This document shows positions 542 to 33,731 of a stretch of DNA of 64,000 nucleotides, in pieces. This stretch comes from an uncultured Planctomycetota bacterium (GTDB taxonomy: Bacteria > Planctomycetota > Planctomycetia > Gemmatales > Gemmataceae), in assembly GCA_963849325.1 (NCBI GenBank), contig CAWKHF010000012.1, positions 224,001 to 288,000 of the forward strand, read 5' to 3'. The translations under genes were made by a program, and so were the position numbers. The notes under the pieces are model-generated. The model saw nothing but the letters and a program-made list of their open reading frames with translations. It was not told the origin of the DNA and made no database searches. How positions within the stretch are numbered: the first letter of the stretch is position 1; every line of letters starts with the position of its first letter.

Positions 542-560
542 GACTCTTGGTTCCCTGGGA

Positions 561-599
561 TGTAGTATTATAATACCACAATCTCACCTGGGAAGTCAA
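561..599 (-). promoter_or_regulatory. Sigma70-like promoter of the TA operon with overlapping palindromic operator
   Basis: Minus strand TTGACT-N18-TATTAT with extended TG. Near-perfect 20-bp palindrome tgtagtattataataccaca (561-580) covers the -10. Confidence 0.55.
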
Positions 600-624
600 T
601 GAATGATGCTCTCGCCGGGGTCAA

Positions 625-14268: not shown

Positions 14269-14319
14269 AGTCCCGACCCCTTTTCTTTTCGTGAAAGAAT
14301 CCAATTCGCTTTAGTTTCA

Positions 14320-14718
14320 TCATTGAGTACCTAAGAAGGTTTGGCCCTTAACCATGACATCACTTTTAATGTCGTATTTGTTTCCGGCTAGGTTAGCATT
14401 GAGAATGACCTGGAGGTCCAGACTGTACCGCTCGTTCCTTGCGGTTGCGACTATATTGACATAAAAAGAGATTGATAATGTGTTAATACAAACGAGGCGT
14501 GGATTAGAAGTTTCCACGCCATCGACGAGGCAATTACCTGATCCGATAAACTCGATAAATTCCATGTCTAAGTCGCTGTATTGACGACGAAGCACCCCTA
14601 GCAAGTGCTCACTTAGAAAAGCTCCCAAATCAGGCACGAGGTCCATACGCTCAAGTATCGCATTGATCGCGTCAGCCTTTTCGAAACCCAAAACGGCAGG
14701 TTGATGTGGACTTGTCAT
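14320..14718 (-). CDS. Putative orphan immunity protein (hypothetical)
   Basis: Low-GC ~132-aa ORF (start MTSPHQ, purine-rich RBS) at the distal end of the toxin array. Confidence 0.55.
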   Translation of the reverse strand: MTSPHQPAVLGFEKADAINAILERMDLVPDLGAFLSEHLLGVLRRQYSDLDMEFIEFIGSGNCLVDGVETSNPRLVCINTLSISFYVNIVATARNERYSLDLQVILNANLAGNKYDIKSDVMVKGQTFLGTQ

Positions 14719-14748
14719 GATCTCTTCTTCCTCGCTTGCCAAACCAAG

Positions 14749-15141
14749 CTACAGGGGATTGGCAGAACAAAGGCGTTCTGTAATGTCTCGAAGCTGTGCC
14801 AAACACTCCGCTTCCGTTGAATAGCGACACTCACCTATCTTCGCTACAACATCTTGCCCTACTGCATGGATCCTTCTCACGTCGGCTTCGAGGAGAATGG
14901 CCGTTTCGGTCACGGTGATCTCCAAACACCAACTAACGGCTTCTCCGGAAACCAATTCTACGTCTACGTACTCCTCAAGCCGGTAACTGTCGATTAAGTC
15001 CGGCATTTCAACCACGTGCTTAACCGATCTTACTTCATTAAGCTCACTTAGGTGAATCGCATGGAGCTTGAGCCGGCGGTGGCATTCGCCAATCGCCAGA
15101 AGTAGCGGGAATCCGCGGACATTAATTGAAATCGTGTTCAT
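14749..15141 (-). CDS. Putative immunity protein for the ART-like tip
   Basis: Low-GC acidic ORF (MNTISINVRG) starting 4 nt after the toxin stop. Confidence 0.65.
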   Translation of the reverse strand: MNTISINVRGFPLLLAIGECHRRLKLHAIHLSELNEVRSVKHVVEMPDLIDSYRLEEYVDVELVSGEAVSWCLEITVTETAILLEADVRRIHAVGQDVVAKIGECRYSTEAECLAQLRDITERLCSANPL

Positions 15142-15145
15142 TGTG

Positions 15146-17052: not shown

Positions 17053-19817
17053 TTATTTCAAGCTCCCTCCATACTGCTGCAACGCCGCCTCGATTCTTTC
17101 CAGTGCATCTGGCACCTGATCAAGGAACCGGAAACGCGGATCGTTCTTGAACAGGTTGGCTACGTCCTGGACATTACCTCGCGCTGAAGCGGCTTTAGCA
17201 GGCAGCGTCTTACTGAGGATTACATCGATGTTCTTATTCAGTTCAGCGATCTGGGTAGGTGTCAACTTGGCACCGGCAGGTAGAGCCTTGATTCCTTTGA
17301 TGACTTGTGGATCAGGCATCGCTCCCTTTGAACCAGAGGAGCCGGCCTGATGGCCATTGGTGTTATGACTCCAGACGGCGAAGCCCCAATCGTCACCACC
17401 CACGAAATACGTCTGCAACTCCCGCACGCGGAAATTATAGACACGCACCACCGCGCCGGCATCCACCATGTCCTCGACCATCACCGGCTCACCGCTCAGC
17501 GTCTGGATCATATCTCCACGACGCAACGACCACGCCAGCACCCAACCACGACCCGGCACGTAAAACGGATGCTCCCCCGTCGGACGCAACTCCCGACCAC
17601 CCACCGTCAGACGCACCACCGGCGCCAAGCGGACAAACACCTCCTCCACCACCTGCTCCACCACCGCAGCCGACGGATTGTACTGATCGCGGCTGAGGAC
17701 ACGGTCGCCGATCAGGATACGCTCAATCGCCTTGCAGCCGTACAGCAGACGAATCAGCGTCCCCGCCACGAAACAGGCCGTCTGCACCTGCGCCTGCTGA
17801 GCACTACCGGCCTTGCCAGCGTTGCTGCCCGCACTCGACTGCGGCGGCGTCGGCGGCTCGGTCGTCCCCTTCTGCGCCGCCGGCTGACGGCCACGCAGGA
17901 AGGAACGAGCACCGCGGACACCACCGTACAACAGCAATCCCGTCTGAATCGTGCCCTCCGTCAACATCTGACGTTGCTGCGCCGCCGTCAAGCCCAGATG
18001 ACGACCCGTCGCCAGGTCCTCTCCCGTCCAACCCGTGTACGCCGCACTGACCCCCGTGGCATCCGCCAAACCGCCCCCCAGCGATTGCAACACCGTCTGA
18101 CCCTGGTTGAAACCGCGATCCGCCGCGCTGGACAACGACGACACCGCCAGCATCCCCATGCCCACCGCGAACAGCACCGGACCAACGCCCGGAACCAACA
18201 AGGCCACCGCACCCAGACCCACGCCCACACCGACCATCGCCACCGTCTTCCAACTGGGGAAGAAATCGAGGAACGTCTGCCAGCCGCTCTGCGGCGGCGG
18301 CGGATTGACTTGCGCGATCACCAGGTCATCCAGCGAACGCGCCGCATCGATGTCGCGTCCCTGCTGGGCGCTTTGCACGTTGGCGTTGACCTGGTTCTGC
18401 ACTTGCGTGAGTAGCGCCGCCCGCTGTGTGTCGGCCACGTCGATGCTCTTGGCGGTTTGATCGGCGTTTTTGGCTTGGGCATCGCTGAGTGCGGCGTTGA
18501 CGGCGGCGACGAGGGCGGCGGGGGCCGGCGCGACTTCGGCCTGCACTTGCCCAGCAGCGGCGTCGGCCGCCGCCTGGATGGCGGCATCGGCTGCCGACGC
18601 TTTCTGGACGACGCTGTCGTGAGAGACGGTGGCTACCTGCGTATCGTGCGCTTGCGCGGCGTCGGCGTCCTTGTTCTGTTGGTTCTTCTGGTCCTGGGCG
18701 ATCTGATCGTTGCCGCTCTTGACGGCGGCGTCCTGGTTGTGGGCCGCCTGGTCGTCGGCGGCGTCCACGGCTTTCTGGTCGGCAGCGGCGGCGGGGGCCT
18801 CGGTCTTTTCCCAGGCGTCGGCGGCGCCCTGGTCGGCGTTCGCGTCGGTGACGGCGGCTGTCGCTTCATCGTTGTCGTGAGCGGCCGCATCAACGGTGGC
18901 CGCGTGCTCGTCTGCTTGCCAGGCCGTGTCCACCGCCGTCACGTCATCGGCGGCGGCCTGCGCTTCATCGTGGGCGTCGGCCACGGCGGCGTCGGCCTCG
19001 GTCTGGACGGCGACCTGAGCGTTGGCATCTTCGGCGTCGGACTCGGCGTCATCGGCCTTGGCCTCGGCCACCGTCTTGTCCGTCTCGGCGTTGTAGTCGG
19101 CCTCGGCATCAGCCACGTCCGCCGCGGCATCGCTGGCCGTGCCCTGGACCCAGGCGGCCATCTCCACGTCCAGCAAGTGCGCGTAGCGCGTGCCGGTCTG
19201 CTCGGCCCAGCTATGCACGTCGCTGCCGGCGGCCGACAACACGGCATCCACCTGCTGCTGCCACGCCGACATCTCGGCGTTGTTGCAGGCTTCGTTATCT
19301 TGCCGCGCCGCATCCAACGCGGCACTATCGGCAGCCGTGGTCTCTTGATCCCATTGTACGGCGGCGGCCGCATCGGCCAGTTGCTGCTGCTCCCAGGCCG
19401 CATCCACGGTGTCCGTCCAGGCCACGCCTGCCGCGGCATCCGCCTCGTCCTGGGCCACATCGGCGGCGCTGGCCGCGTCGTCCAGGGCCACGCCCGCCGC
19501 CGTCACTGCCGCGATGTACGGCGCATACGCCGCCGCGTTGGTCTGCTCCTCGGCGGAGGTCGCCGCCTCGTAGCTGTCCGTCCACGTCTGCTCGGCGTCG
19601 GCCAGGGCATCGTCGCATTGCTTCTGGGCGTCGGCGATGGCGTCGTCACGCACCTGCGCCGCCGCGTCCACGGTGTCGGCCAACGCCTGATCGGCAGTGG
19701 ACAGGGCGTCGGCCAGCGTCTTCTTGGCCGCCGTCATGCCCTGGTCATAGGTCCGCTCATTGTCGGCCTGAGCGTCGGCCAACGCCTGGTCAGCATCCGC
19801 GGCGGTGTCCAGGCACG
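17053..19817 (-). CDS. Orphan toxin module: truncated stalk + TM + Hint (17362-17775) + unknown ~100-aa helical tip
   Basis: Duplicate of the carrier from ~30340 onwards; Hint motifs CFVAGT, TGEHPFYV, VYNFRV, WSHN. Confidence 0.8.
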
Positions 19818-19830: not shown

Positions 19831-20325
19831 TCACACTTCAACTAGAATTGTCGAAAACCTCTCTTGCACTCCGCTTTCCGTGTTTGCGACGAATGTAAAT
19901 TTCGTCTCCCCAAGGGGTATACAGACTGGGGCGCCTGTCGCACGAAGATCAGATCCAGAAACCGGCTGGTATCTGACTTGATCGAAGGGATGCTCCTGGG
20001 TCGAGAAACCGACAAATACCTTATAACCATCGAGCTGTGGGGTGGTTTCCACAACCTCGATGAAACTCTTGCCATCATAAGACGGGTAGACTGTACCGTA
20101 TTCCGGTGTGGCGAGATCATCTTGATGTTCAGTAGAGAACAGAATCGACCGCAGAACCATGTTCTTGTAAAGGCTCTGGGCAATCTCATCCCAGTCGTCA
20201 TACGCTTCCTCATCCCGCCAAGGAATCCTCCCCCTTTCCATATAAGGAATCAAGGCCACAAGAGCGTCACGAAAATTTAGCATCAGATGGTGGACAGAAG
20301 TAGTCCACCGTTCTCCACCAGCCAT
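19831..20325 (-). CDS. Putative immunity protein
   Basis: Low-GC 164-aa ORF with TAATG overlap on the stop of the upstream toxin tip. Confidence 0.7.
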   Translation of the reverse strand: MAGGERWTTSVHHLMLNFRDALVALIPYMERGRIPWRDEEAYDDWDEIAQSLYKNMVLRSILFSTEHQDDLATPEYGTVYPSYDGKSFIEVVETTPQLDGYKVFVGFSTQEHPFDQVRYQPVSGSDLRATGAPVCIPLGETKFTFVANTESGVQERFSTILVEV

Positions 20326-20912
20326 TAGGAACCTCCGAATAGTTTGTCGATGAAGTCCAATTCTTCTGGTGTAGGAGGCCGCTTCGGCCCAAAACCCTGA
20401 CCGGGGGTAACCGGCTTCACTCGGTCCTTGGTGATGTCAAGGATGACCTGGCCTTTATCGTCCGTGACATAGACACGTCCCTTCGATCCTTTGATCAAAC
20501 TATTCGGGGGACCGGTAAGGTTCTTAACTTGTGAGCCGCTACGGCCACCGCTCAGGGCAGGCAGGTCTGGTCTCGGTGTCGCCCCACCCTGTGGAGCAGG
20601 CGAGCCAGCCTCGTGTCCATTAGTGTTATGGCTCCAGACGGCGAAGCCCCAATCGTCGCCACCCACGAAATACGTCTGCAACTCCCGCACGCGGAAATTA
20701 TAGACGCGCACCACCTCGCCGGTGTCCACCATGTCCTCGACCAGCACCGGCTCGCCGCTCAGCGTCTGAATCACGTCGCCACGACGCAACGACCACGCCA
20801 GCACCCAACCGCGACCCGGCACGTAGAAGGGATGTTCGCCCGTCGGACGCAATTCCCGACCACTCACCGTCAGACGCACCACCGGCGCCAAGCGAACAAA
20901 CACCTCCTCCAC
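20325..20912 (-). pseudogene. Orphan toxin module: 3' part of Hint + unknown ~99-aa basic tip
   Basis: 20620-20910 is nearly identical in DNA to 17357-17650. Tip SGGRSGSQVKNLTGPPNS...GRVYVTDDKGQVILDITKDRVKPV. Confidence 0.75.
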
Positions 20913-21399: not shown

Positions 21400-21409
21400 C
21401 GTTCAACCC

Positions 21410-21544: not shown

Positions 21545-21546
21545 CC

Positions 21547-21767: not shown

Positions 21768-21824
21768 AGTCCCGACCCCCTTTCCGACCCCCTTTCTTCT
21801 CCCCTTTTCTTCTCCGCCTGCTGG

Positions 21825-22214
21825 TCAGTCCTCTTCCCAGGCGATGTTAGCAGGTAAATGCCGCGTCCTGAAGAAATATCTAACGGCTTCACGAGCGGTA
21901 TCAAATGGGATGGCGTGCTGAATGGGGAACTCAGACCATTGGTCCATGAAATGGAAGACAACGGTTCCTTCTCCCGTTAGATCGCCAACGCTGGATAGGT
22001 ACGGCGGTTCGCCTGAACCAGAGACATAATTGAGCACGCTCAAATCCCGGCCAACTCCGATCGCAAGCGATCCACCATTCTCAGGAGCTTCGACGGAGAC
22101 AAGTACAGCTCGGTCGCCCTGGTATTTGGCGTGCAAGTCATCCAACAACGCATCAAGCTCGGATAGCGAGGATATTTCTTTCTCGCCATCCTCTGACCAT
22201 TGCACTTTCCACAT
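21825..22214 (-). CDS. Imm1-family immunity protein (second copy)
   Basis: MWKVQW...LAIGVG...PPYLSS...FHFMDQWSEFP..HAIPFDTAREAVRYFF....P..IAWEE, an Imm1/DddI-like pattern. Confidence 0.75.
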   Translation of the reverse strand: MWKVQWSEDGEKEISSLSELDALLDDLHAKYQGDRAVLVSVEAPENGGSLAIGVGRDLSVLNYVSGSGEPPYLSSVGDLTGEGTVVFHFMDQWSEFPIQHAIPFDTAREAVRYFFRTRHLPANIAWEED

Positions 22215-22245
22215 GGTCACTATAAAGGCAGTCATGAGACAGTTT

Positions 22246-22650
22246 CTAAAACTCCTCCCAAGCAACGGCAGGACTGCGGCCACCCGTTTCCATGAAATAA
22301 GCGATGATTTGGTTTATTCGCTCAGGCGAAAGGCCGTATCGTCTATCGATCGGTGTGGCCGTACCCCCAACCACAAACTCCATGTCGCCGGCATGCGACT
22401 TCACTCCGGTCGGGCTAACTGCCATCCTATATGGAGGGGTTCCGTCGCTAGGGGCGTACTGAACACAACCAATATCAACCCCCAACCCCACTGTCAGAGT
22501 GATACCGTTATCGCCAATCAATTCACACATGAAGGGCGACCTAGAACAGCGCAACTCATTCAGCAAACCAACGATCTGTAGGGGGTTGGTAAAGCTCTCA
22601 TCGTTTCGCGGGTTGTCACGATCTTCCAAGTCCTGAAATGTTACTTTCAT
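22246..22650 (-). CDS. Imm1-family immunity protein, cognate to the deaminase tip
   Basis: MKVTF...LTVGLG...PPY...EFVVGGTATPI..RY.L.......YFMETGGRSPAVAWEE; ATGA overlap with the toxin stop. Confidence 0.8.
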   Translation of the reverse strand: MKVTFQDLEDRDNPRNDESFTNPLQIVGLLNELRCSRSPFMCELIGDNGITLTVGLGVDIGCVQYAPSDGTPPYRMAVSPTGVKSHAGDMEFVVGGTATPIDRRYGLSPERINQIIAYFMETGGRSPAVAWEEF

Positions 22651-25600
22651 CGAGCATTCCCAATAAACAATATGGAGGAGCCATCCGGCAACACGACCGT
22701 CAATCTGCTGCCCGGAGGCAACATGTTTGCGAGATTCTGTTGACAAGGCAGACAAATCTTCGGGTTGTTGATGTGCAGCACGGCCTCTTGAATTCCTTGC
22801 TGCCGCATCAACGCCGAAGCGTGTCCTTCTACATGCGTGGAGGTTATAGCGTTGAATCCGGGGGAAGGCTTTGGCAAGGAAGCCGCTGGTCCCGCCCGTC
22901 CACTCAGCAGGGGCGTATCACCCGCCGCCGTTCGCAGGACGCCAGACGTTTTGCCGCCCGCTACGAATTCGGGCAGCGTTACTCCTTCTCCGCAGTTGTT
23001 GTGGACGAGGACTTGCCCAGTTCCAACGGCATAGCAATGCAGACCCTCCACCTGGAAATTGTACACCTCCTGTCGAACTTGCCGCACCGCCAACCTCGTG
23101 ACCGGCGCTTGCCGACCCGACTTGAGCAGCAGCACGTCTCCCACCTGCAGGTCACCCGCATCCACCCAGCGGCCAGGAACCTTCGCTCCGGCCGGCGTCT
23201 CGGGGACGTGTTCGGGACGTGGCCGCGACTCCAGCCCTTGCCCCTCGATGACCCAGAAGGGGTGTCCGGCTGTCGCCTCGATGATTTCGCCCGCTACGAG
23301 GAGCGCTACCGAATCTCCCTCGTGATCGAACCGATAGGTCTCGACAACTGAGCGGAGCTTCCACTTCTTGGCAACGAGATCGTAGGCCCACACCCGATCT
23401 GACACCCGGATGGTCTCGATCGATTTGAGGCCCTCCGCAGCGGAAATCAAGGTGCCAGCAGGGAAGCAATTGGGGAAGCACCCTGCTTGTCGGGCAGCGG
23501 GAGCGGCCGCTTGGCGACCACGGAGGAAATTACGGCCGCCCTTGATGGCGCCTGGCAACAGCATGGCAGCGATTTGCACGCCGCTCTCTCCCAGCATCTG
23601 ACGTTGTTGCGCGTCGGTCAAGCCCAAATGGCGGCCCGTCGCCAGGTCCTCTCCCGTCCAACCCGTATACGCCGCGCTCACCCCCGTGGCGTCGGCCAGG
23701 CCGCCCCCCAGCGATTGCAGCACCGTCTGACCCTGGTTGAAACCGCGATCCGCCGCGCTGGACAACGACGACACCGCCAGCATTCCCATGCCCACCGCGA
23801 ACAGCACCGGACCAACGCCAGGAACCAACAAGGCCACCGCACCCAGACCTACGCCCACACCAACCATCGCCACCGTCTTCCAACTGGGGAAGAAATCGAT
23901 GAACGTCTGCCAGCCGCTCTGCGGCGGCGGCGGATTGACCTGGGCGATGACCAGATCATCCAGCGAACGCGCCGCATCGGTATCGCGCTGCTGCTGGGCG
24001 CTTTGCACGTTGGTGTTGACCTGGTTCTGCACTTGATTGAGCAGGGCCGCCCGCTGCGTGTCGGCCAGGCTGATGCCCTGGGTCGTCTGATCGGCGTTCT
24101 TGGCCTGGGCATCGCTGACGGCGGCGTTGACGGTGGCGATGATGGCGACGGGTGCCGGCGCGACTTCGGCCTGCACTTGCCCAGCAGCGGCGTCGGCCGC
24201 CGCCTGGATGGCGGCATCGGCTGCCGACGCTTTCTGGACAACGCTGTCGTGAGAGACGGTGGCCACTTGGGTATCATGCGTCTGGGCGGCGTTGGCATCC
24301 TTGGTCTGCTGCGTCTTGCTGGGCTTGGGCGATCTGATCGTTGCCGCTCTTGACGGCGGCGTCCTGGTTGTGGGCCGCCTGGTCGTCGGCGGCGTCCACG
24401 GCTTTCTGGTCGGCAGCGGCGGCGGGGGCCTCGGTCTTTTCCCAGGCGTCGGCGGCGTCCTGATCGGCGTTGGCGTCGGTGACGGCGGCAGTGGCTTCAT
24501 CGTTGTCGTGAGCGGCCGCATCAACGGTGGCCGCGTGCTCATCCGCTTGCCAGGCGCTGTCCACCGCCGTCACGTCGTCGGCGGCGGCCTGCACTTCATC
24601 ATGGGCGTCGGCCACGGCGGCGTCGGCCTCGGTCTTGACGGCGACCTGAGCGTTGGCATCTTCGGCGTCGGACTCGGCGTCGTCGGCCTTGGCCTCGGCC
24701 ACCGTCTTGTCCGTCTCGGCGTTGTAGTCGGCCTCGGCATCAGCCACGTCCGCCGCGGCATCGCTGGCCGTGCCCTGGACCCAGGCGGCCATTTCCACGT
24801 CCAGCAGATGGGCGTAGCGTGTGCCGGTCTGCTCGGCCCAGCTATGCACGTCGCTGCCGGCGGCCGACAATACCGTGTCCACCTGGCTCTGCCACGCCGC
24901 CATCTCCGCGTTATCGCAGGCTTCGTTGTCCTGCCGGGCCGTGTCCAACGCCGTGCTGTCGGCCGTGGACGTATCCGCGTCCCACTGCTCGGCGGCGGCG
25001 GCATCCGCCAGTTGCTGCTGCTCCCAGGCGGCATCCACGGTATCGGTCCAGGCCACGCCGGAGGCGGCGTCGGCTTCGTCCTGGGTCACGTCGGCGGCGC
25101 TGACCGCATCATCCAGAGCCACGCCCGCCGCCGTCACCGCCGCGATGTACGGCGCGTAGGCCGCCGCGTTGGTCTGCTCCTCGGCGGAGGCCGCCGCCTC
25201 GTAGCTGTCCGTCCACGTCTGCTCGGCGTCGGCCAGGGCATCGTCGCATTGCTTCTGGGCGTCGGCGATGGTGTCGTCGCGCACCTGCGCCGCCGCGTCC
25301 ACGGTGTCGGCCAAATCCTGATCGGCGGCGGACAGGGCATCCGCCAGCGTCTGCTTGGCCGCGGTCATGCCGTCGTCATAGGTCAGTTCGTTATCAGCCT
25401 GTGTGTCGGCCAACGTCTGCCCGGCGTCGGCGGCACTGTCCAGGTACGCCTGCAGAGCTTGCGCCTTGGCCGTTTGCAGGTCGGCCAACGGCTGGGCCAG
25501 GGCCTTGGTGTAGCCGGCGTTGGCGTCGTTGACGGCGTTGTTATAGACTTGGCGGGCGTTGGCATAGGCATCGTACTTGGTCTTCTCGATGGCGTTGGTC

Positions 25601-27294
25601 GCGCTTTGCTGCACCATCTGAGCGGTGCCGTCGGCCGTGACCTGCGTAATGGAGGCATCGTCCCGGGCCAGCAGGTAGGTCTGCTGCGCCTGTCGCAACT
25701 CGTTGGTTACGGCCTGGGCGGCATTGGGATCGCCGCTCTTCTCGGCGTTGTTATAGTCGGTTTGATATTGGCCATTGACGAAGTTCCAGTAAGTGGCGGC
25801 GGCGGCCTGGACGGTCTTGTTGTAGGCCGCCAGGTCTTTATTGAGGGCGCTGACGTAGTTGGCCTGAGTCGATTGACGCGAGCTGGCGTACTGCTGGTCC
25901 ACCGGATTGGTGGTCTGGATGAACTGATTGGCGGCGGCCTGACGCGCTGCGGAGGCGGCCTGTTGAGCAGCTTGGTCGGCGGCATCGTAGGCGTTCTGGG
26001 CGGTGGTGAGGGCAGTGTCGCGGATGCCACTGGCATTCTGGATGGTGTTGTTGTAGTCGTTCTGGGCGTTGCTATTGGCCTGGTCGAAGTCGCTTTGCAG
26101 TTGGTTGGTCTGATCGTTGTAGGCGTTTTGGGCGTCGGAGATGGCGGTGTTGTAGTCGTCTTCGGCCTGGCCCTGGACGGTGTCGTAGGTGTCGTTGGCT
26201 TGTTGGGTGGCCTGGTCGCTGGCGGCCTGGGCGGTGGTGGCGGCATCGTCGTAGGCAGAGTCGGCGGCGTCCTCGGCGTTTTGTCGGTCTTGGGCCGACT
26301 GGTTGGTGGCGTCGCTGTAGGTCTGGTCGGCGGCGGCGATGGCTTGACCGTAAGCCGTTTGCGCAGCGGCGACGGTTTGGTCGTGGGTGGCTTGGTTGGC
26401 GGCGAGGGCGTTGTTGTAGTCCTGGTCAGCCTGGTCCTGAGCCGCCTGCTCGGTGGCCGCGTCGGTGGCGACGGTCTGGTTGTAGGTGGTATCGGCGGTG
26501 TCGTAGGCGTTTTGCAGGTTGGCCTGCACGGTGTTCATCTGGTCGTTGAGCGTGTTCTCCGCCTGCTGATTGGCGGCATCATCGGCGGTCTGGGCGTTCT
26601 GTGTGGCGGCCTGGACGTTGGGGTCTTGCGAGAAGTCGGGCACGGTGGTGGCGGCCTGGTCGTCGGGTCCGTTGGCGTAATCGGCCTCGGCGGCGTTGGC
26701 GGCCTGGTCGAAGGCGGCCTGGTTCTGATCGCCGCTGGTCTGGGCGGCGGCGTCGGCTTGCGTCTCGGTCGCCGTGGCGGCTGACTCGGCGTCGGCGTCG
26801 GTCTGGGCGAGCTGCTGCTGCGCTTGCTGGTCCGCTTGCTGATTGGCCTGGTCAGCGTTGTCGAGGACGTTCTGCAAGGTCTGTTGATCGGCGGCATCGC
26901 GGCTGGTGTTGGCGGCGTCGGCGGCGGTGCTGCTGTCGTCGAGGGCTTGTTGCAGGGTGCTGGTCTGGTCGCTCAGTTGTTGATCGTCGGTCTGGGTGCG
27001 ATTCTGGTAGGCGGTGTCGGCGGTGTTGGTGCTGGCCTCGTCGGTGGCGTCGGCGGCGGCCTTGACGGTGTTATAGGTATCGTTGGCCGTGTCCACGCTG
27101 GTGTTGTACTGCTGGTCGGAGGCGTCGGCGGCGGTGTTGTACTGAGCGACGGCGGCTTGGGTGTCGGTGGCGAGCTGAGTGGCGTCGTCCTGGGTGGCTT
27201 GGTTGTAGGCGTCGTCGGCGGCTTGCGTGGCGGCGTCGGCGGCGGTGTTGTCGTTGGCCAGCGTTTGCGTGAAGTTCTGGGCAGGCTGAGGCAT
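22647..27294 (-). CDS. Orphan toxin module: long stalk copy + TM + Hint (22998-23468) + SCP1.201/DddA-like deaminase (22647-22997); frameshift near 24320
   Basis: Duplicate of the carrier from ~32173. Hint CFPAGT...TAGHPFWV...VYNFQV...VHN; deaminase HVEGH...INNP.IC.PC...MLPPG..LTVV.P.G...F.GN. Confidence 0.88.
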
Positions 27295-27311
27295 TAGCGG
27301 GCTATGAGCAT

Positions 27312-27926
27312 CTACCATCCTGTAAGGAGCTGCCCTTCCAGGATTTCGTAACCTTCCGCAATCACCTCGATGTAGCTGTCATGCCCAAGAATCAAATAAT
27401 GCCTCCACTTCCGATATCTGTCCTGCGCCGCTCCCGTTTCATCGAGCCAAGGGGACAATTCAACCTCATAAATCGACGGATCAGGACAGATGCCCGATTG
27501 TTGCCAGGAGTCACGAGTTTGCTGCAAATGCTTGAGTATGTCCTCTCCAGGTGTCCAACTTCCGGTGACTTGCGACCAATCAAACAGGGATTCATCGATG
27601 ACTTCCTTATCCGAATGAGAAGGGCACATTCTCGACCATATACCACTCTTGAAAACGAACCGCAGAAGGCGATACGGCCCCTTCTGGCTGGAATTCGCCA
27701 GTTGGAAGGTACTTGGCGGTTGAACAACTAGAACGCCTGATGACGAAGATACCGATACATCCTCACAGTGGTAATATGCGACAAAATCCACATGGGTTTC
27801 ACCTTGCGAGGAACATTCGGTTGCCACGAGGCGAAGAAACGGCGTTGATGGTGATACCATCCAGGGCACCTGTATCGGCATCAGGATTGGTTTTTGCACT
27901 CTTGTACTTGGCATGGTGTTCCTCAT
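27312..27926 (-). CDS. Putative immunity protein for the primary toxin tip
   Basis: Low-GC 204-aa ORF with TAATG overlap on the carrier stop. Confidence 0.7.
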   Translation of the reverse strand: MRNTMPSTRVQKPILMPIQVPWMVSPSTPFLRLVATECSSQGETHVDFVAYYHCEDVSVSSSSGVLVVQPPSTFQLANSSQKGPYRLLRFVFKSGIWSRMCPSHSDKEVIDESLFDWSQVTGSWTPGEDILKHLQQTRDSWQQSGICPDPSIYEVELSPWLDETGAAQDRYRKWRHYLILGHDSYIEVIAEGYEILEGQLLTGW

Positions 27927-30900
27927 TAGGGAAGTTCAATCACTCGCAGCACAGTAAGGTCCGTCTGGCTTGGCGTCACCGGCACCCGCGGTCCTGGCAG
28001 CGGGGCATCCGGGATGATAGGCGGTTCTTTCAGTCGTGCAAGCAAACGCCGCGTCGAGTCGATAATTTTGATGTTTGTCGGCTTCATCCCTGCCTCGCTG
28101 AGTGCTGCCAGTGAACGAGTGTTGGCCGACACGAGGGCCCATCAGCCATCTTGAAAGCTTCAATTGGCAACTGATCCGGCGTCATTTTTCCCGCACGCAA
28201 GTCAGCAGCCACATCACTAATTAGTCTCCCAGCAAGTTCTGGCGGCCGGCCTTTCGTACCAAATGTTGGCCCAACACGTTTCTGCCCGAACAACGGCCCT
28301 GCCGCTGACTGGGAAGCAGGCGGCACCACTGGCGCCGGCGTGACCGGAGCCGGCTTTGGACCACCCGGTGCGGCAGGGGGCGGAGCGGGCGGCTTGGGCG
28401 CGGCAGGCTGGCGGCCGCGGAGGAAATTGCGCCCACCCTTGACAGCGACGGGCAAAAGCAGGGCCGCCACCTGCAGGCCCGTCTCTCCCAGCATCTGACG
28501 TTGCTGGGCGGGCGTCAAGCCCAGATGACGACCCGTCGCCAAGTCCTCTCCCGTCCAACCCGTGTACGCCCGCTCACCCCCGTCGCGTCGGCCAGGCCGC
28601 CCCCAAGCGATTGCAACACCGACTGACCCTGGTTGAAACCGCGATCCGCCGCGCTGGACAACGCCGACACCGCCAGCATCCCCATGCCAATGGCAAACAG
28701 CACCGGACCGGCGCCCGGAATCAACAACGCCACCGCACCCAGACCCACGCCCGCACCAACCATCGCCACCGTCTTCCAACTGGGGAAGAAATCGATGAAC
28801 GTCTGCCAGCCGCTCTGCGGCGGCGGCGGATTGACCTGGGCGATGACCAGATCATCCAGCGAACGCGCCGCATCGATGTCGCGGCCTTGTTGGGCACTTT
28901 GCACGTTGGCGTTGACCTGGTTCTGCACTTGATTGAGCAGGGCCGCCCGCTGCGTGTCGGCCAGGCTGATGCTCTGGGTCGTCTGGTCGGCGTTCTTGGC
29001 CTGGGCATCGCTGACGGCGGCGTTGACGGCGCCGATGATGGCGGCGGGTGCCGGCGCGACTTCGGCCTGCACTTGCCCAGCAGCGGCGTCGGCCGCCGCC
29101 TGGATGGCGGCATCGGCCGCCGACGCTTTCTGGACGACGCTGTCGTGAGAGACGGTGGCCACCTGGGTATCATGCGTCTGGGCGGCGCTGGTATCCTTGT
29201 CTTGCTGCCTTTTTGGTCCTGAGCGAGTTGGTCACTGCCGCTCTTGACGGCGGCGTCCTGGTCGTGGGCCGCTTGATCGTCAGCGGCGTCCACGGCTTTC
29301 TGATCGGACGCGGCAGCGGGGGCCTCGGTCTTCTCCCATGTGTTGGCGGCGTCCTGATCGGCGTTAGCGTCGGCGACAGCGGCAGCGGCTTCATCGTTAT
29401 CGTGAGCGGCGGCATCGAGCGTGGCCGCGTGCTCGTCCGCTTGCCAAGCCGTATCCACGGCCGTTACCTCATCGGCGGCCGCCTGCACCTCGTCATGCGT
29501 ATCGGCCACTGCGGCCTCTGCCTCCGTTTTGACGGCCGCTTGAGCGTTGCTGGCCTCGGCGTTGCTCTCGGCATCCTCGGCCTTGGCCTCGGCTACGGTC
29601 TTGTCTGTCTCGGCGTTGAAGTCGGCGTCCGTATCCGCGACGTCGGCCGCGGCGTCGGACTCGGTGCCCTGGACCCAGGCAGCCATTTCCACGTCCAGCA
29701 AGTGGGCGTAGCGAGTCCCCGATTGCTCGGCCCAATTATGCAGGGCATCGCTCTGGACAGACAACACCGCATCCACTTGCTGCTGCCATGCCGCCATCTC
29801 CGTATTATTGCAGTCCTCGACAGCCGTACGGGCCGCATCGAGAGCGACGCTGTCGGCCGTGGCCGTATCCGCGTCCCACTGCTCGGCGGCGGCCGCATCC
29901 GCGAGTTGCTGGGTCTCCCAGGCGGCATCCACCGCATCCGTCCAGGCCACGCCGGAGGCGGCGTCGGCTTCGTCCTGGGCCACGTCGGCGGCGGTGACGG
30001 AGTCGTCCAACGTCACACCCGCCGCCGTCACCGCCGCGATGTACGGCGCATACGCCGCCGCGTTGGTCTGCTCCTCGGCGGAGGCCGCCGCCTCGTAGCT
30101 GTCCGTCCACGTCTGCTCGGCGTCGGCCAGGGCATCGTCGCATTGCTTCTGGGCGTCGGCGATGGTGTCGTCGCGCACCTGCGCCGCCGCGTCCACGGTG
30201 TCGGCCAACGCCTGATCGGCAGCGGACAGGGCATCGGCCAGCGTCTGCTTGGCCGCGGTCATGCCGTCGTCATAGGTCAATTCGTTATCAGCCTGTGTGT
30301 CGGCCAACGTCTGCCCGGCGTCGGCGGCCGTGTCCAGGTACGCCTGCAGAGCTTGCGCCTTGGCCGTTTGCAGGTCGGCCAGCGGCTGGGCCAGCGCCTT
30401 GGTGTAGCCGGCGTTGGCGTCGTTGACGGCGTTGTTATAGGTTTGGCGAGCGTTGGCGTAGGCATCGTACTTGGTCTTCTCGATGGCGTTGGTCGCGGTC
30501 TGCTGCACCATCTGGGCGGCGCCGTCGGCGGTGACCTGCTTGATGTAGGCGTCGTCTCGGGCCAGCAGGTAGGTCTGCTGCGCCTGCCGCAGCTCCTTGG
30601 TCACGGCCAGACCGGCATTGGGATCGTTGCTCTGCTCGGCGTTGTTATAGTCGGTCTGATATTGGCCATCGGCGAAGTTCCAGTATGTGGCCGCGGCTGC
30701 CTTGACGGCCGTGTTGTAGTTCGCCAGGTCTTTGTTGAGGGCACTGACGTAATCGGCCTGGGTGGACTGACGGGCTTTGGCGTATTGCGCGTCCACCGGG
30801 TTGGTGGTCTGGATGAACTGCTGGGTGGCGGCTTGCCGCGCCGCCGAGGCGGCCTGCTGAGCGGCCTGGTCGGCGGCGTCGTAGATGCCCTGGGCCTTGG

Positions 30901-33731
30901 TGATAGCGGCGTCGCGGTCGTTGCCGGCGTCCTGGACAACGCTGTTGTAGTCGTTCTGGGCGTTGCTATTGGCCTGGTCGAAGGCGCTTTGCAGTTGGTT
31001 GGTCTGATCGTTGTAGGCGTTTTGGGCGTCGGAGATGGCGGTGTTGTAGTCGTCCTCGGCCTGGCCCTGGACGGTGTTGTAGGTGTCGTTGGCTTGTTGG
31101 GTGGCCTGGTCGCTGGTGGCCTGGGCGGCGGTGGCGGCATCGTCGTAGGCAGAGTCGGCGGCGTCCTCGGCGGTCTGCCGGTCTTGGGCCGACTGGTTGG
31201 TGGCATCGGTGTAGGTTTGGCCGGCGGCGGCGACGGCTTGATCGTAAGCCGTTTGCGCAGCGGCGACAGTTTGGTCGTGGCTGGTCTGGTTGGCGGCGAG
31301 GGCGTTGTTGTAATCCTGGTCGGCCTGGTCCTGAGCCGCCTGCTCGGTGGCCGCGTCGCTGGCGACGGTCTGGTTGTAGGTGTTATCGGCGGTGTCGTAG
31401 GCGTTTTGCAGGTTGGCCTGGACGGTGTTCATCTGGTCGTTGAGGGTGGCCTCGGCCTGCTGATTGGCGGCATCGTCGGCGGTCTGGGCGGACTGCGTGG
31501 CGGCCTGAACGTTGGGATCCTGGGAGAAGTCGGGCACGGTGGTGGCGGCTTGGTCGTCCGGGCCGTTGGCGTAGTCGGCCTCGGCGGCGTTGGCGGCCTG
31601 GTCGAAGGTGGCCTGGTTCTGATCGCCGCTGGTCTGGGCAGCGGCGTCGGCTTGCGTCTCGGTCGCCGTGGCGGCGGACTCGGCGTCGGCGTCGGTCTGG
31701 GCGAGTTGCTGCTGCGCTTGCTGGTCCGCTTGCTGCTCGGCTTGGTCGGCGTTGTCGAGGGCGTTCTGCAAGGTCTGCTGATCGGCGGCATCGCGGCTGG
31801 TGTTGGCGGCGTCGGCGGCGGTGCTGCTGTCGTCGAGGGCTTGCTGCAGGGTGCTGGTCTGGTCGCTCAGTTGTTGATCGTCGCTCTGGGTGCGATTCTG
31901 GTAGGCGGTGTCGGCGGCGTTGGTGCTGGCCTCGTCGGTGGCGTCGGCGTCGGCCTTGACGGTGTTATAGGTATCGTTGGCCGTGTCCACGCTGGTGTTG
32001 TACTGCTGGTCGGAGGAGTCGGCGGCGGTGTTGTACTGAGCGACGGCGGCTTGGGTGTCGGTGGCGAGCTGAGTGGCGTCGTCCTGGGTGGCTTGGTTGT
32101 AGGCGTCGTCGGCGGCTTGCGTGGCGGCGTCGGCGGCGGTGTTGTCGTTGGCCAGCGTTTGCGTGAAGTTCTGGTCGGCGGTTTGTCCGCTGGTCTGGTA
32201 GCCCTGATCGATGCTGCTTTCCTGTTGGCTAAGGTTGTCGTTGAGGGCGGAGATGGTCTGCTGCTCTTGCTGATCGTCGGCAGCGGCGTCGTTGGTGAGG
32301 GTTTGCTGATCGTTCTGGACTTCCTGGATCACGGTGGGATCACTGGAGAACGTCATCGACCTCGGTAGAGCCGTAGTCGGTGGGGTCGGACTGACCAGGG
32401 TCGGGCGGACCATACAGATCCAGCGTCTCCGTGCCATCGGATGAATCGGAGGAATCGGTGGCGTCTGCTGTGCCCGCCGTGGTGTTATCGGCGGCGCTGC
32501 TGTCCGCGGGCGTCGAGGAGGCGGGGTCGGTGCCATCGGTTGAATCGCTGGAGTCGGCGAGGGACATCGGCGCCATCGTGGATGTTCCCGCCGCGGCGGA
32601 GGATGCCGAGGTCTTGCCGGCCTTGGGGTCGGTGGTCGAAGTGGGGACGGCGGGCGGGTCGCCGATAGCTGCCGAGTGGGGCGTCGGCGGCGGCAGGAGA
32701 GCGGGGCTGGCGGTGGGAGGCAGCGTAGTGGTGTGCGCCGGCGTGCCTTGAGGCAGGCGAGGCAGGCTTGAGCCAGTAGGAGCCGGAGTGTTGGCCCCGC
32801 GCACATCGGCGATGACCTGCGTCAGTCCAGACAATGCCTGGCTACTTTTCGTGGGCGGAGGTGGCAGGGTGAAGGCGGGCAGGGCGTGGTTGGCCGCCGG
32901 GCTGGAGGGGGTCGGACTGGTCTGGCTCTGGGTCGGACTGGTATTGGCCTGGCTGCTGCTGTTGAGAGCAACCGTGGCCGGCGTCGAAGGTGCGGCGTTG
33001 GCGCCATTCTGGGCCAGCAGGGTGTTCCAGTTCGGATTGCTGCCTCCTCCTCCTCCACCGCCTCCGCCGCTACCGCCGCCGGCGTTGGGCGTGCTGCTGC
33101 CGCCGGGACCGCCACCGCCGCCGGTGTCATTGTTAGGGTTGGACGGCGGTGCCGATGGAGGCGGCGAAGAGGACCGTGTGGGAGGCGGCGTCAAGGCAAG
33201 GTCTGTATCATCCGTCAGCGTCGGAGCGAAGGAGAGCGGCTGGGTGCTGCTGCTGGTGTTGTCGGTCGATGGGTTCTCCTGCTCAGGCGTGGAGGTGGCG
33301 GATTGGTCAGCTGCCGCCGGCTGTTTCAGGAGCAGCCAGGTCCAATAGTCCGGCGCGGACGAGGTCGAGGCGAGGTCCACCCCGGCGTCGGCGTTTTCTT
33401 GCGGCGGTAGTGAGACCGCAACGATGTCGGCATCCGCGTTGACTTCCGCATTCGCCGTCGGCGTTGGCTGAGAGGTGGCCAGCATGGGCGGGGGCGGGGC
33501 CAAGTTCGCCAGGCTCGACAGGAGTAACGGTGTGATGGCTTCGCCGGGCAGATCGCGCGAGGACAACGGCTCCAGCATCGGCCGCGAGGACCGCCGAGAC
33601 GTGGGGATGGCAGCGCGCCGCAGTCGTGGGCGATGACAGGTTTGCCGCAGGGCTTGATACAAATGAGTCGTAGTCCGTCCAACGTGCCAGATGGCCAGAC
33701 GCATCCAGCGACAACGCTGTCTCGGAGGCAT
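27926..33731 (-). CDS. Full-length polymorphic toxin carrier (~1,900 aa); four apparent frameshifts near 32350, 29212, 28570 and 28138
   Basis: Joins ORFs 32340..33731, 28721..32806, 28515..29162, 28084..28779 and 27926..28132. The breaks at 29212 and 28570 read through in the orphan copies. Order: RPMLEPLSSRDLP, S/T/P/G linker, A/D/Q/T stalk, hydrophobic segment, TGEDLATG, ParB-like tip. Confidence 0.8.

Follow-up and report, generated by a model that had tools for sequence, protein, structure and literature searches.

What does the long acidic polypeptide encoded at this planctomycete locus look like when folded, and what does it do for the toxin gene to which it belongs? The window, that is, the whole stretch of 64,000 nucleotides that was analysed, contains on its minus strand a stop-free frame (32353..29201) that translates into 1,051 residues, referred to below as the stalk. 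The preliminary description took it for a hendecad coiled coil that could project a toxin. The best explanation of the locus is that the stalk is the shaft of one large polymorphic toxin of a Gemmataceae-type planctomycete. Judging from structural models and comparison with relatives, the chain most likely folds on itself as an unusually long antiparallel two-helix hairpin rod, with one turn at residues 575-587. The features are collected in Table 1; the gene that contains the stalk is called copy A.

Table 1. Features of the toxin locus (window coordinates; residues are those of the stalk unless stated)
Feature	Position	Strand	Remarks
Copy A N-terminal part	32340..33731	-	basic stretch, degenerate planctomycete-type motif RPMLEPLSSRDLP; frame differs from stalk
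Stalk N arm	30632..32338	-	residues 6-574; one loop at 263-279; AF2 helices 6-262, 280-574
Predicted hairpin turn	30593..30631	-	residues 575-587, ..EQSNDPNAGLAVT..; AF2 turn 575-579
Stalk C arm	29201..30592	-	residues 588-1051, same frame as N arm; breaks 785-792, 878-881
C-arm continuation ('linker')	28833..29162	-	~110 residues up to NPPPP motif; other frame in copy A
Hydrophobic helical hairpin, copy A	28647..28778	-	WKTVAMVGAGVGLGAVALLIPGAGPVLFAIGMGMLAVSALSSAA; two ~20-residue segments, PGxGP turn between
TG-motif region, Pro-rich linker and toxin tail, copy A	27929..28640	-	TG motif ..AYTGWTGEDLATGRHLGLT.AQQRQM..
Candidate immunity protein, copy A	27312..27926	-	204-aa ORF directly after toxin tail; by position only
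Orphan copy B	22647..27318	-	90.3% nt identity to A over 3,791 columns
Copy B stalk ORF	24274..27318	-	1,014 aa; stalk residues ~60-1048
Copy B 3' ORF	22647..24542	-	linker, TM hairpin, TG region, PT-HINT, DddA-like deaminase
Two Imm1-family immunity genes	22246..22755, 21825..22283	-	after deaminase; PF14430 E 2.3e-6, 6.1e-19
Short orphan	20325..20912	-	C-terminal half of PT-HINT + toxin tail; PF07591 E 1.4e-11, profile positions 49-136
Candidate immunity ORF of short orphan	19831..20325	-	164 aa
Orphan copy C	17053..19782	-	intact single ORF, 909 aa; stalk residues ~671-1051 onward
Orphan copy D	15146..16639	-	intact single ORF, 497 aa; last ~90 stalk residues onward
Small candidate immunity ORFs after copy D	14749..15180, 14320..14742	-	
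Split IS4-type transposase	12775..14215	-	beyond copy D immunity ORFs

Composition and periodicity of the stalk

The stalk is rich in Ala (25.9%), Asp (13.8%), Gln (13.1%), Thr (10.3%) and Asn (6.6%) and poor in Pro (0.9%) and Gly (1.9%), in agreement with the preliminary description. It is a very polar sequence, with YWFLIVM making up 15% of the residues, and it holds 186 Asp and Glu against 33 Lys and Arg (net charge -153). A mechanically called ORF spans 28721..32806, its Arg/Pro-rich ends being out-of-frame read-through around the stalk. The stalk is coding and under selection, as indicated by a dN/dS of 0.22 between copies A and B; the ratio exceeds 1 in no segment of that comparison (maximum 0.84, on 4 changes), which gives no sign of diversifying selection at the tip of the rod.

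The recurrence of aromatic residues every 11 positions, previously noticed in the peptides ANDTYNTVQGQ, AEDDYNTAISD and AQNAYNDQTNQ (residues 421-453), is borne out by autocorrelation. Among the 54 aromatic residues, lags 11, 22, 33 and 44 account for 16, 20, 14 and 15 pairs (z 8.5, 11.0, 7.3 and 8.2), the 99th percentile of the largest z per shuffle being 4.2 in 2,000 shuffles. The 157 YWFLIVM residues are in excess at lags 4, 7, 11, 15 and 22 (z 4.6, 4.3, 8.6, 4.7 and 9.1), Ala reaches z 7.9 at lag 11, and the hydrophobic spacing is that of a hendecad (4/7/11/15/18). Modulo 11, the aromatic residues fall at 8 in all 9 cases between positions 52 and 261, at 7 in all 16 between 326 and 557, and at 1 in 9 of the 15 between 595 and 826, the unbroken register runs extending over 19 to 21 hendecads. 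Sliding windows of 77 residues likewise give a period peak at 3.60-3.76 in 28 of 45 cases and a near-heptad one (3.54) in a single case; they show residues 750-1051 (the last ~300) to be weakly periodic. Fourier analysis of the full length, which had also been proposed, does not exceed the shuffles at 11 or 3.667 (power 3.4-5.2, with the 99% shuffle maximum at 7.7-9.4), owing to three shifts of register along the chain; the aromatic 5.5 harmonic alone exceeds the shuffles (12.8).

The N-arm consensus is A-x-x-x-Y-[ND]-x-A-[VT]-x-x, with Ala at a in 15, Tyr at e in 14 and Ala at h in 15 of the 22 hendecads of residues 322-563. The C-arm profile is similar (a, Ala 18/22; e, Tyr/Leu/Trp 14/22; h, Ala 13/22). 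TRF detected no recent DNA repeat behind the 11-residue beat, only low-score rows of 2-3 copies. The hendecad register is retained in relatives at only 46% identity, the aromatic lag-11 z being 8.7 in P0007 and 6.3 in P0003.

The toxin gene

The stalk family is very rare, with 23 matches among 1.84 billion representatives. In intact relatives, the gene encodes, in this order, a basic stretch with a LExLExR-type motif, a variable spacer, the helical region of ~1,170 residues, NPPPP, a hydrophobic helical hairpin, a TG-motif region, an optional PT-HINT domain and a variable toxin, followed by an immunity gene. The previously proposed order of stalk, transmembrane segment, Hint and toxin holds, as does the absence of UmbA/UmbB-like genes (none by Pfam in the window's 48 scanned ORFs or fragments). 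Stalk, TM hairpin and toxin share one frame in P0007 (1,960 aa), P0003, P0005, P0006 and P0009 and in window copies C and D, and the C-arm continuation is not split from the stalk ORF in copies C and D or in any of the relatives. Three things had escaped the earlier reading: stalk, TM hairpin and toxin of copy A lie in different frames, three further copies of the stalk exist, and the upstream ORF of 463 aa is part of the same gene in relatives.

The last 180 residues of this upstream ORF align to P0008 (E 2e-13) and end in LDLYG..DPTDYG.TEVDDV; in P0008 and P0007 the N-terminal part continues in frame into the stalk. The N-terminal planctomycete-type motif is carried by 56 long ORFs of the genome, and its canonical form is found in P0018 and P0020. 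After the motif, copy A has ~370 residues rich in Pro, Ser, Ala, Thr and Gly (14.7, 14.7, 13.9, 13.4 and 9.1%, respectively, from residue 91), likely a disordered spacer. Some relatives (P0018 and P0020) carry Ig/PKD-like repeats at the N-terminus instead. The copy A N-terminal ORF has no Pfam or NCBIfam match, and a hydropathy scan finds no hydrophobic segment in it; the same scan finds one in P0007 (residues 59-77).

The hydrophobic hairpin is conserved in the family alignment, with 19-residue hydropathy means of 1.8-2.4 in all seven members tested. Copy A lacks PT-HINT, and neither its toxin tail (Pfam) nor its candidate immunity protein (Pfam, NCBIfam) has a match; the corresponding stretch of copy C gives no PT-TG (PF14449) match at a threshold as loose as E<=5. 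Copy A is interrupted 3-4 times in all, including near 29205, near 28570 and probably near 28140. At the first of these spots, measured against the intact copies C and D, a base is missing from copy A and an extra one is present in copy B. The frame breaks of A and B probably reflect faulty assembly, since the EF-G and sensor kinase genes of the window are broken as well.

Evidence for a probable hairpin fold

From shallow alignments (12-21 rows, mostly fragments) and a monomer as sole input, AF2, which is prone to folding long helices back on themselves, predicts helix everywhere in the stalk but at its ends and in four short loops (3 to 17 residues), in keeping with the long helical region proposed at the outset. 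In its first model, pLDDT is highest (80-89) at residues 450-700, symmetrically about 576, and lower (43-78) in the base-proximal helices; the C arm consists of helices 578-784, 793-877 and 882-1050. A second model, of residues 250-900, consists of a 295-residue and a 298-residue helix with a turn of 5 residues between them, pairs 280-574 with an unbroken 580-877, and reaches a mean pLDDT of 76, with values of at least 80 across 350-549 and 590-759. The pTM of the two models is 0.32-0.39. The best structural match of the hairpin is PrgA (6z9l_A, Z 13.5, 517 residues aligned, model 47..627); a chemoreceptor (2ch7_A, Z 12.9, 309/309 aligned) superposes too, though the geometry is read from superpositions with an rmsd of 9-19 Å and long helical models commonly reach Z 13-14 through arrangement alone. 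The antiparallel two-helix rods of Rad50, MukB and Smc also superpose, and the model fits such solved rods along almost its entire length.

Comparison with relatives points to the same turn. The stalks of copy A and P0007 align without gaps for 572 + 460 residues, their only indels (+2, +4) being at 574-588, and P0003 differs by a single 2-residue indel at 586. An alignment offset of 0 is better than shifts of 3, 4, 11 or 22 in 25 of 25 windows for P0007 and 19 of 19 for P0003. The turn residues P578 and G581 are 6-9 residues off the midpoint (587) of the helical region, which, from stalk start to NPPPP, measures 1,174 residues in copy A and 1,178 in P0007. Residue ~580 is also the mirror point of the helix breakers (264-280 with 879-896, 51/56 with 1101/1103, and 378 with 770/779), and register runs of 21 hendecads lie on either side (326-557 and 595-826). 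The mirrored hydrophobic correlation peaks at S = 1152/1156, matching the AF2 turn, with a tie at 1189.

The evidence thus favours the alternative of a shorter, folded-back structure over a fully extended coil of ~150 nm, both of which had been envisaged. As modelled, with 295 residues per arm, the rod would be about 44 nm long. The geometry suggests that the base-proximal halves (residues 6-262 with ~900-1156) may pair too; if the whole region does so (~570 residues per arm), its length would be about 85 nm. The oligomeric state would be that of a single chain folded on itself.

The stretch next to the turn is both marked and variable. An aromatic cluster, YWNF..Y...Y, immediately precedes it (residues 557-569; YWNF at 30674-30685), and the motif [FY]W[DN]F is discernible by eye near the turn in A, B, P0007, P0003 and P0016. 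Stalk identity is lowest at residues 441-600, where A and B share 80-82% versus 88-100% in most other windows; between A and P0007 it is 32-38% in three of the four windows and 57% in 481-520.

Proposed role of the rod and alternatives

The explanation we prefer overall, and hold to be somewhat better than an even bet, is a hairpin shaft that reaches out with its tip and carries the toxin at its base. The hendecads have a small-large-small core, with Ala at a and h and Tyr/Leu/Trp at e. The 3.67-residue beat would let the hydrophobic stripe run almost along the helix axis, and two nearly straight helices could thus pair across hundreds of residues. The hairpin would bring the N-terminal region and the membrane-hairpin/toxin module together at the base and away from the rod's far end, which goes against the earlier suggestion that the stalk could project the toxin. 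The far tip would present the conserved aromatic motif amid the most variable sequence. Such a rigid, strongly negative spacer may contact a target surface through its tip, much as colicins do with their receptor-binding hairpin. Next to the toxin, the hydrophobic hairpin could then aid membrane crossing, and PT-HINT could release the toxin. The analysis establishes the 11-residue beat, the helicity, the gene architecture, the array of copies and the rarity of the family; pairing over the full length, the oligomeric state, which end contacts what, the export route and a reach or aiming function of the colicin or PrgA kind are what we infer. In P0018 and P0020, with their Ig/PKD-like repeats at the N-terminus, target binding could instead be at the base.

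It is also conceivable, if rather unlikely, that the same rod stands on the producer's surface, one end being fixed in the envelope via the hydrophobic hairpin or the N-terminal region. It would then keep other parts tens of nanometres off, and would serve as a spacer or a contact-dependent weapon instead of being released like a colicin. [quoted passage not shown] The N-terminal hydrophobic segment of P0007 could serve as anchor, and the repeats ahead of the stalk in some relatives are adhesin-like. However, the N-terminal ORF of copy A has no such segment, Pfam and NCBIfam reveal no LPXTG or other known anchor and no globular tip domain, and a rod anchored at the N-terminal-region end would not project the toxin, which the hairpin sets at that very end.

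Hendecads are classically found in parallel bundles that are straight or right-handed, e.g. tetrabrachion. A parallel, in-register homo-oligomer (dimer to tetramer), ~150 nm when extended and with the toxin at its far end, would explain the periodicity as well as a hairpin does, and the AF2 models cover a single chain only. We nevertheless regard it as improbable. Such a coil can take up whole extra hendecads at any point, but the indels of two relatives at 46% identity are confined to 574-588. In both A and P0007, no more than 9 residues separate the flexible NDPNAG turn from the midpoint; AF2 is confident of a turn there, and breakers and register shifts are mirrored about it. Moreover, a multi-strand bundle standing on its own would have little core to rely on, with only three positions per 11 residues, of which two are Ala.

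Amphipathic 11-residue repeats are also a hallmark of apolipoproteins, alpha-synuclein, perilipins and LEA proteins. A disordered acidic region that becomes helical only on a surface would agree with the polar composition, with the moderate AF2 confidence (mean pLDDT 66-76) and with a weak structural match to ApoA-IV (3s84_B, Z 8.2). This is very doubtful: the net charge would repel anionic membranes, Pfam yields no LEA, apolipoprotein or synuclein match, and the exact length kept over >1,000 residues, the registers of 19-21 repeats and the low dN/dS speak for a defined fold.

Many phage tape measure proteins end in hydrophobic segments. A helical ruler of this type, lodged in a phage or tailocin tube with aromatic markers per 11 residues and a membrane-active end, hardly deserves credence even though 11-residue repeats with conserved W/F markers are reported in such proteins (PMC3271669), since stalk, copy C and P0007 have no PHROGs match (0/3), Pfam finds no tail, sheath or baseplate gene among the window's 48 scanned ORFs or fragments, and the protein carries PT-HINT and polymorphic toxins that come with immunity genes.

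Orphan copies and their immunity genes

Downstream of copy A come three to four orphan copies, together with immunity genes; including A, four copies bear stalk sequence. Copy B has a +1 frame break near 24310, between stalk and linker, and matches PT-HINT (PF07591, E 1.2e-16) and a deaminase (PF14428, E 3.7e-16). In copy C, the stalk part is 83% identical to A and is followed by linker, NPPPP (18292-18306), TM hairpin, TG region, PT-HINT (PF07591, E 8e-17) and toxin tail. Copy D continues from the stalk through linker, TM hairpin and TG region into a different toxin tail. If the hairpin shaft is the correct reading, recombination with these downstream copies could replace the toxin, and copy B could replace the tip too.

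Architecture of the toxin and its locus

The stalk belongs to a large polymorphic toxin with several other parts. On its N-terminal side lie a basic stretch with, by eye, an LExLExR-type motif and then a variable spacer; the stalk comes third and runs into a helical continuation of ~120 residues that ends at NPPPP. Beyond this point come a hydrophobic helical hairpin (the TM hairpin, two ~20-residue segments flanking PGxGP), a conserved region with a TG motif, an optional PT-HINT domain (PF07591) and a variable toxin. A single reading frame holds all parts in the related proteins P0007 (1,960 aa), P0003, P0005, P0006 and P0009, and in window copies C and D. The spacer is rich in P, S, T and G in the window and in two relatives, P0007 and P0008, where it is probably disordered; in two more distant relatives, P0018 and P0020, it consists, by eye, of Ig/PKD-like repeats. 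The ORF upstream of the stalk in copy A matches P0008 as far as ..DPTDYG.TEVDDV (E 2e-13), and in P0008 the sequence up to this point continues directly into the stalk.

Four stalk-bearing copies are arrayed in tandem in the window, A being the full copy and B, C and D orphans (see table). They have the stalk, the TM hairpin and the TG region in common, yet carry four different toxin tails. Copy B ends with PT-HINT and a DddA-like deaminase (PF14428, E 3.7e-16) followed by two Imm1 (PF14430) genes. PT-HINT is also present in copy C and in a short orphan. The tails of A, C, D and the short orphan have no Pfam match at E<=0.1, and the small ORFs that follow the tails other than that of B belong to no family in Pfam or NCBIfam. 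In copy C, the TM hairpin together with the TG region (the TM-TG module) has no match to the pre-toxin TG domain PF14449 even at E<=5, although the conserved TG motif is visible. The three marks of polymorphic toxins in the sense of Zhang et al. 2012, namely a variable C-terminal toxin, a downstream immunity gene, and a pre-toxin domain with orphan cassettes, are all found here.

Features of the window that bear on the stalk toxin, with other genes mentioned in the text
Feature	Coordinates (nt)	Strand	Remarks
N-terminal motif of the toxin	33500-33600		LExLExR type
ORF upstream of the stalk	32340..33731		463 aa
Mechanical ORF over the stalk	28721..32806		R/P-rich ends are read-through from other frames
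Stalk of copy A	32353 to ~29201	-	ATG at 32353; 1,051 residues
Copy B	22647-27318	-	starts at stalk residue ~60; 90.3% nt identity to A over 3,791 columns
Short PT-HINT orphan	20325..20912	-	without stalk
Copy C	17053..19782	-	intact ORF, 909 aa; starts at stalk residue ~671
ORF directly after copy C	16655-17050	-	131 aa
Copy D	15146..16639	-	intact ORF, 497 aa; starts at stalk residue ~963
IS4-type DDE transposase	12775-14215	-	split into two ORFs; ends the toxin array
S8 subtilase	10639-12666	-	675 aa; signal-like N-terminal segment; just past the IS element
EF-G	50204-52383	+	across three frames (GTP_EFTU, EF-G_D2, III-IV-C)
Sensor kinase	4443-7261	+	HisKA and HATPase_c in different frames

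The G+C content falls to 0.55 at 14001-16000 and to 0.52 at 20001-22000, against a background of ~0.65, precisely where the orphan array has its toxin tips and immunity genes, a pattern that horizontal shuffling of cassettes would produce. The ORF directly after copy C has a C-terminal CxxC...CxxC zinc-ribbon and a weak NCBIfam match to anti-TRAP RtpA that falls below threshold (E 1.3e-4; 22 bits, the cutoff being 65). This ORF is a candidate for the immunity protein of a toxin that has no assigned family.

Hendecad periodicity of the stalk

The stalk contains 25.9% A, 13.8% D, 13.1% Q, 10.3% T and 6.6% N, with only 0.9% P and 1.9% G, and has a net charge of -153. The 11-residue periodicity claimed for it in the preliminary description is borne out by lag counts, by sliding windows and by the aromatic register. 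Its 54 aromatic residues form 16, 20, 14 and 15 pairs at lags of 11, 22, 33 and 44 (z of 8.5, 11.0, 7.3 and 8.2); in 2,000 shuffles, the largest z per shuffle has a 99th percentile of 4.2. All hydrophobic residues together show the hendecad ladder of lags 4, 7, 11, 15 and 22 (z of 4.6, 4.3, 8.6, 4.7 and 9.1), and Ala has a z of 7.9 at lag 11. The period lies at 3.60-3.76 in 28 of 45 sliding windows and near 3.5 in one, the periodicity being weak at residues 750-1051. Taken modulo 11, the aromatic residues keep to one position in 9/9 cases at residues 52-261, in 16/16 at 326-557 and in 9/15 at 595-826. The consensus of the repeat is A-x-x-x-Y-[ND]-x-A-[VT]-x-x, with Ala at position a in 15 of 22 repeats, Tyr at e in 14 and Ala at h in 15.

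A Fourier or autocorrelation analysis had been put forward as a check. Lag counts and sliding windows on a 77-residue scale answer it positively, but a Fourier transform across the whole stalk gives no peak over shuffles at 11 or 3.667. This is because the stalk has three register shifts, and the two local measures were used instead. TRF finds no repeat array in the DNA of the stalk, indicating that the 11-residue beat is structural; it is kept in relatives of 46% identity. A hydrophobic periodicity of 11/3 = 3.67 across many turns, the mark of a hendecad coiled coil, is present in the stalk. The AF2 model of all 1,051 residues is helix throughout (6-262, 280-574, 578-784, 793-877 and 882-1050), apart from both ends and four short loops that span 3 to 17 residues.

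Evidence for a probable hairpin

The stalk probably folds back on itself as a hairpin rod. In the full-length AF2 model the mean pLDDT is 66.5, with the best values, 80-89, at residues 450-700. A model of residues 250-900 reaches a mean pLDDT of 76 (>=80 across 350-549 and 590-759) and consists of helices of 295 and 298 residues with a 5-residue turn between them. Its hairpin geometry is read from superpositions on solved antiparallel coiled coils: it matches the stalk of PrgA (6z9l_A; Z 13.5, 517 residues aligned, rmsd 19, model residues 47..627) and a chemoreceptor hairpin (2ch7_A; Z 12.9, all 309 residues), and it also superposes on the arms of Rad50, MukB and Smc. Scores of this size are nothing unusual for a long helical model and speak of geometry, not kinship.

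The sequences, as an independent line of evidence, point the same way. Indels relative to P0007 (+2, +4) and P0003 (2 residues) occur only at residues 574-588; 572 and 460 residues are otherwise gapless, and the gapless offset outscores shifts of 3, 4, 11 and 22 residues in 25/25 and 19/19 windows. From the start of the stalk to NPPPP there are 1,174 residues (P0007 has 1,178), with the NDPNAG turn only 6-9 residues off the midpoint. Helix breakers are mirrored around residue ~580 (264-280 with 879-896, 51/56 with 1101/1103, and 378 with 770/779), and unbroken registers of 21 hendecads stand on either side of the turn. A correlation of mirrored hydrophobicity peaks at 1152/1156, a value tied by 1189. 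The more distant fragments P0018 and P0020 show a difference of exactly 11 residues near the N-terminal end.

The predicted turn is 5-13 residues long and has no domain in it. A conserved [FY]W[DN]F cluster marks the distal tip of the predicted rod, and the identity within the stalk is lowest at residues 441-600: 80-82% between A and B and, relative to P0007, 32-38% in three of the four 40-residue windows and 57% in that of 481-520. That the tip is a receptor site is a tentative proposal, clearly less likely than not.

Alternative readings

The main alternative is a stalk that, like PrgA, is anchored to the producing cell. According to a preprint (10.1101/2020.06.18.156562), the two helices of PrgA form an antiparallel coiled coil within a single chain, 38.5 nm long and called the longest bacterial one in the PDB, with paired prolines that cause a kink; the protein has a CAP protease-like tip domain and an LPXTG anchor. 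PrgA, a protein of Firmicutes, is the closest solved shape to our model, but it is no toxin, no sequence relation to it was found, and families corresponding to the CAP tip domain or the LPXTG anchor were not found here.

Three other readings are less likely. The stalk might form a parallel homo-oligomer of ~150 nm, the length that the preliminary description had considered for a fully extended coil. The indels, the position of the turn, the mirrored breakers and the AF2 models point instead to a folded-back rod. A second reading is that of amphipathic 11-mers that become ordered on a surface, which the 11-residue beat would also fit. A ruler of the tape measure kind has aromatic markers 11 residues apart in its favour, as found in long helical phage tape measure proteins (PMC3271669), but nothing else shared was found: PHROGs match 0 of 3 proteins, there are no phage or tail genes in the window, and the stalk is fused to toxin modules.

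The hairpin is the reading we retain. At 0.15 nm per residue the modelled part of the rod is predicted to measure ~44 nm, and the rod would reach ~85 nm if the outer halves pair too. If true, this is about double the length of any bacterial two-helix coiled coil with a solved structure. Pairing over the full length has somewhat less than an even chance; a complex prediction for the base-proximal arms (copy A 1-262 with copy C 210-492), which scored 0.00 without controls, has no weight either way.

Relation to known toxins

Colicins such as Ia and E3 follow the order of unstructured N-terminus, antiparallel helical hairpin, C-terminal toxin and adjacent immunity protein. Their hairpins are 10-16 nm long; the tip is the candidate receptor site, and across the rod the other end can make contact at a distance. 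The same order of N-terminus, hairpin and toxin with immunity is predicted here, whereas the predicted length is 44-85 nm, and the TM hairpin, TG region and PT-HINT lie before the toxin with orphan cassettes behind it. Colicin Ia (1cii_A) superposes on the model with Z 7.9 over 255 residues, a non-specific level. Colicin families are absent from the Pfam scans, which leaves a likeness of architecture alone, and neither a lysis gene nor a plasmid context was seen.

In Rhs/CdiA-type loci, downstream promoterless cassettes share the 3' end of the carrier for recombination. Unlike the YD shell or beta-helical filament of those systems, the carrier here is an alpha-helical hendecad rod. The carrier homology of orphan B, 3.8 kb, is presumably far above what is usual for their orphan cassettes. 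Pfam scans of the window reveal no T5SS, T6SS or T7SS markers.

The UmbC toxin of Streptomyces (PMC11062931) is a polymorphic toxin in which two long coiled-coil segments of one chain converge as a stalk bearing HINT and a variable C-terminal toxin (deaminases included), with immunity genes nearby. A TAT signal and a ring of eight ALF repeats belong to it, as do the partners UmbA (trypsin-like plus lectin) and UmbB; the toxin sits at the tip of the stalk and the total length is ~30 nm. The two systems have in common an intramolecular coiled-coil stalk, HINT, a polymorphic toxin and nearby immunity genes. They differ in that the stalk toxin has a hydrophobic hairpin before the toxin, which is predicted to sit at the base, a rod predicted to be 1.5 to 3 times longer and, by eye, the LExLExR-type N-terminal motif in place of a TAT signal; no sequence similarity was found. 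The preliminary description had seen no UmbA/UmbB-like partner genes, and in agreement with this a Pfam scan that covered 48 ORFs or fragments of the window detects none. Trypsin-like or lectin neighbours are likewise missing from the window ORFs, the only peptidase being the S8 subtilase. As for ALF repeats, for which Pfam and NCBIfam may or may not hold a model, no family of these libraries falls on the N-terminal ORF, the stalk or P0007; the N-terminal part of the toxin is low-complexity P/S/T/G.

Proposed mechanism

By established coiled-coil theory, a hydrophobic stripe with a period of 3.67 residues runs nearly parallel to the axis of its helix. Two helices that are close to straight and have an Ala/Tyr/Ala core could therefore zip along hundreds of residues, and the conserved length of the stalk would be explained if a one-sided indel breaks this pairing. 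The hairpin would bring the N-terminal region and the TM hairpin with the toxin together at the base and place the tip at the far end. We prefer to see the stalk toxin as a colicin-like reach-and-aim device, in which the tip would touch the target, the acidic rod would act as a stiff spacer, the TM hairpin might help the toxin across a membrane and PT-HINT would free it. Orphan B keeps the tip and carries a different toxin, such that recombination with it could swap both at once.

A bolder version takes the whole 1,170-residue region as an ~85-nm single-chain rod that would found a new class of delivery among the polymorphic toxins of Planctomycetes, in the form of a giant colicin-like bacteriocin. 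Its variable aromatic tip would pick the target, its base would carry a membrane-inserting hairpin and a self-cleaving toxin, and tip and toxin would be exchangeable through the 3.8-kb orphan. We regard this version as less likely than not.

Distribution and novelty

The family is very rare. A full HMMER search of 1.84 billion representatives yields 23 proteins at E<=1e-3, most of which are fragments, and word-indexed searches give 4 near-length proteins (one being the window's own) and 1 longer. A search with the TM-TG module returns 8 proteins, three of them from the window. Of 40 related genomes, 1 carries the stalk, as a fragment, and belongs to the same genus. In a sample of 400 further genomes from across the phylum, the family profile A3 has seven PT-HINT-only matches, one match to the TM-TG module only and none to its stalk part. 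Pfam, NCBIfam and PHROGs have no match on the stalk; a PDB sequence search with profile A4 (E<=0.1) and Foldseek against the PDB (E<=0.001) gave none, and the ESM Atlas none that was usable. No relative was found among genome contigs with P0007 or in metagenomes with A3, and a metagenome search with P0003 gave no more than 3 short contigs, which match in the toxin tail. In a genome of another family of the phylum, a hydrophobic hairpin and TG module are fused to a tail that bears an HExxH motif (HEIGH; L025, G249:C451:1-1839). The tail is metallopeptidase-like by eye and the contig ends before any carrier; the TM-TG module may accordingly occur on other carriers.

No description of a hendecad or antiparallel coiled-coil stalk on a polymorphic toxin was found in the literature, Gemmataceae included. 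Zhang et al. 2012 (PMC3482391) describe variable C-terminal toxins, cognate immunity genes and the PT-HINT pre-toxin domain; in the main text portion of that paper, supplements aside, planctomycetes figure in tables only and the term 'coiled coil' is absent. The carrier appears to be previously undescribed, on a polymorphic toxin of known type.

Little is known of how Planctomycetes compete with other bacteria, or of how proteins with the LExLExR motif exit the cell. The family joins PT-HINT, a DddA-like deaminase and Imm1 to a carrier that is assigned to no family and has hardly any relatives. If the hairpin is true, it would be the longest single-chain two-helix rod proposed for bacteria and a clean natural case of hendecads pairing straight helices over hundreds of residues, useful in coiled-coil design. 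The locus offers a testable, putative rod-shaped reach-and-aim device outside colicins and umbrella toxins, and supplies toxin tails that are still uncharacterised, among them a DddA-like deaminase of the base-editing kind.

Frame breaks, selection and the N-terminal motif

The reading frame of copy A changes near 32345, 29205 and 28570, and probably again near 28140; that of copy B changes near 24310. Compared with the intact copies C and D, the junction of stalk and linker is one base short in A and one base too long in B. These breaks are probable assembly errors, since the EF-G, sensor kinase and transposase genes of the window are also broken. The genome measures 8.16 Mb with about 65% G+C, and its completeness of 84.7% in only 14 contigs, together with the three broken genes, suggests an indel-rich long-read assembly. 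A gene near the toxin, at 46967-48007, shares 70-77% identity with genes from Gemmataceae MAGs, so the organism most likely belongs to the Gemmataceae (Planctomycetota).

Between the stalks of A and B, dN/dS is 0.22, which argues for purifying selection and against decay of the stalk itself to a pseudogene. The dS is a mosaic that ranges over 0-0.94 (22647-27318 compared with 28396-32174): it is 0-0.03 at residues 60-179, 0.07-0.10 at 660-779 and 0.6-0.9 at 840-1050, which indicates repeated gene conversion between the two copies. Diversifying selection at the tip is unsupported, dN/dS being <=0.84 in every 60-residue window.

The N-terminal motif is abundant in the genome. In 56 long ORFs (for example on contigs C5, C1 and C2), a basic stretch is followed by [LVIM]E.[LVIM]E.R (typically ..RLESLEERLAPA..), about 30-50 residues past the Met and without a hydrophobic core. 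The proteins that carry it are presumably exported.
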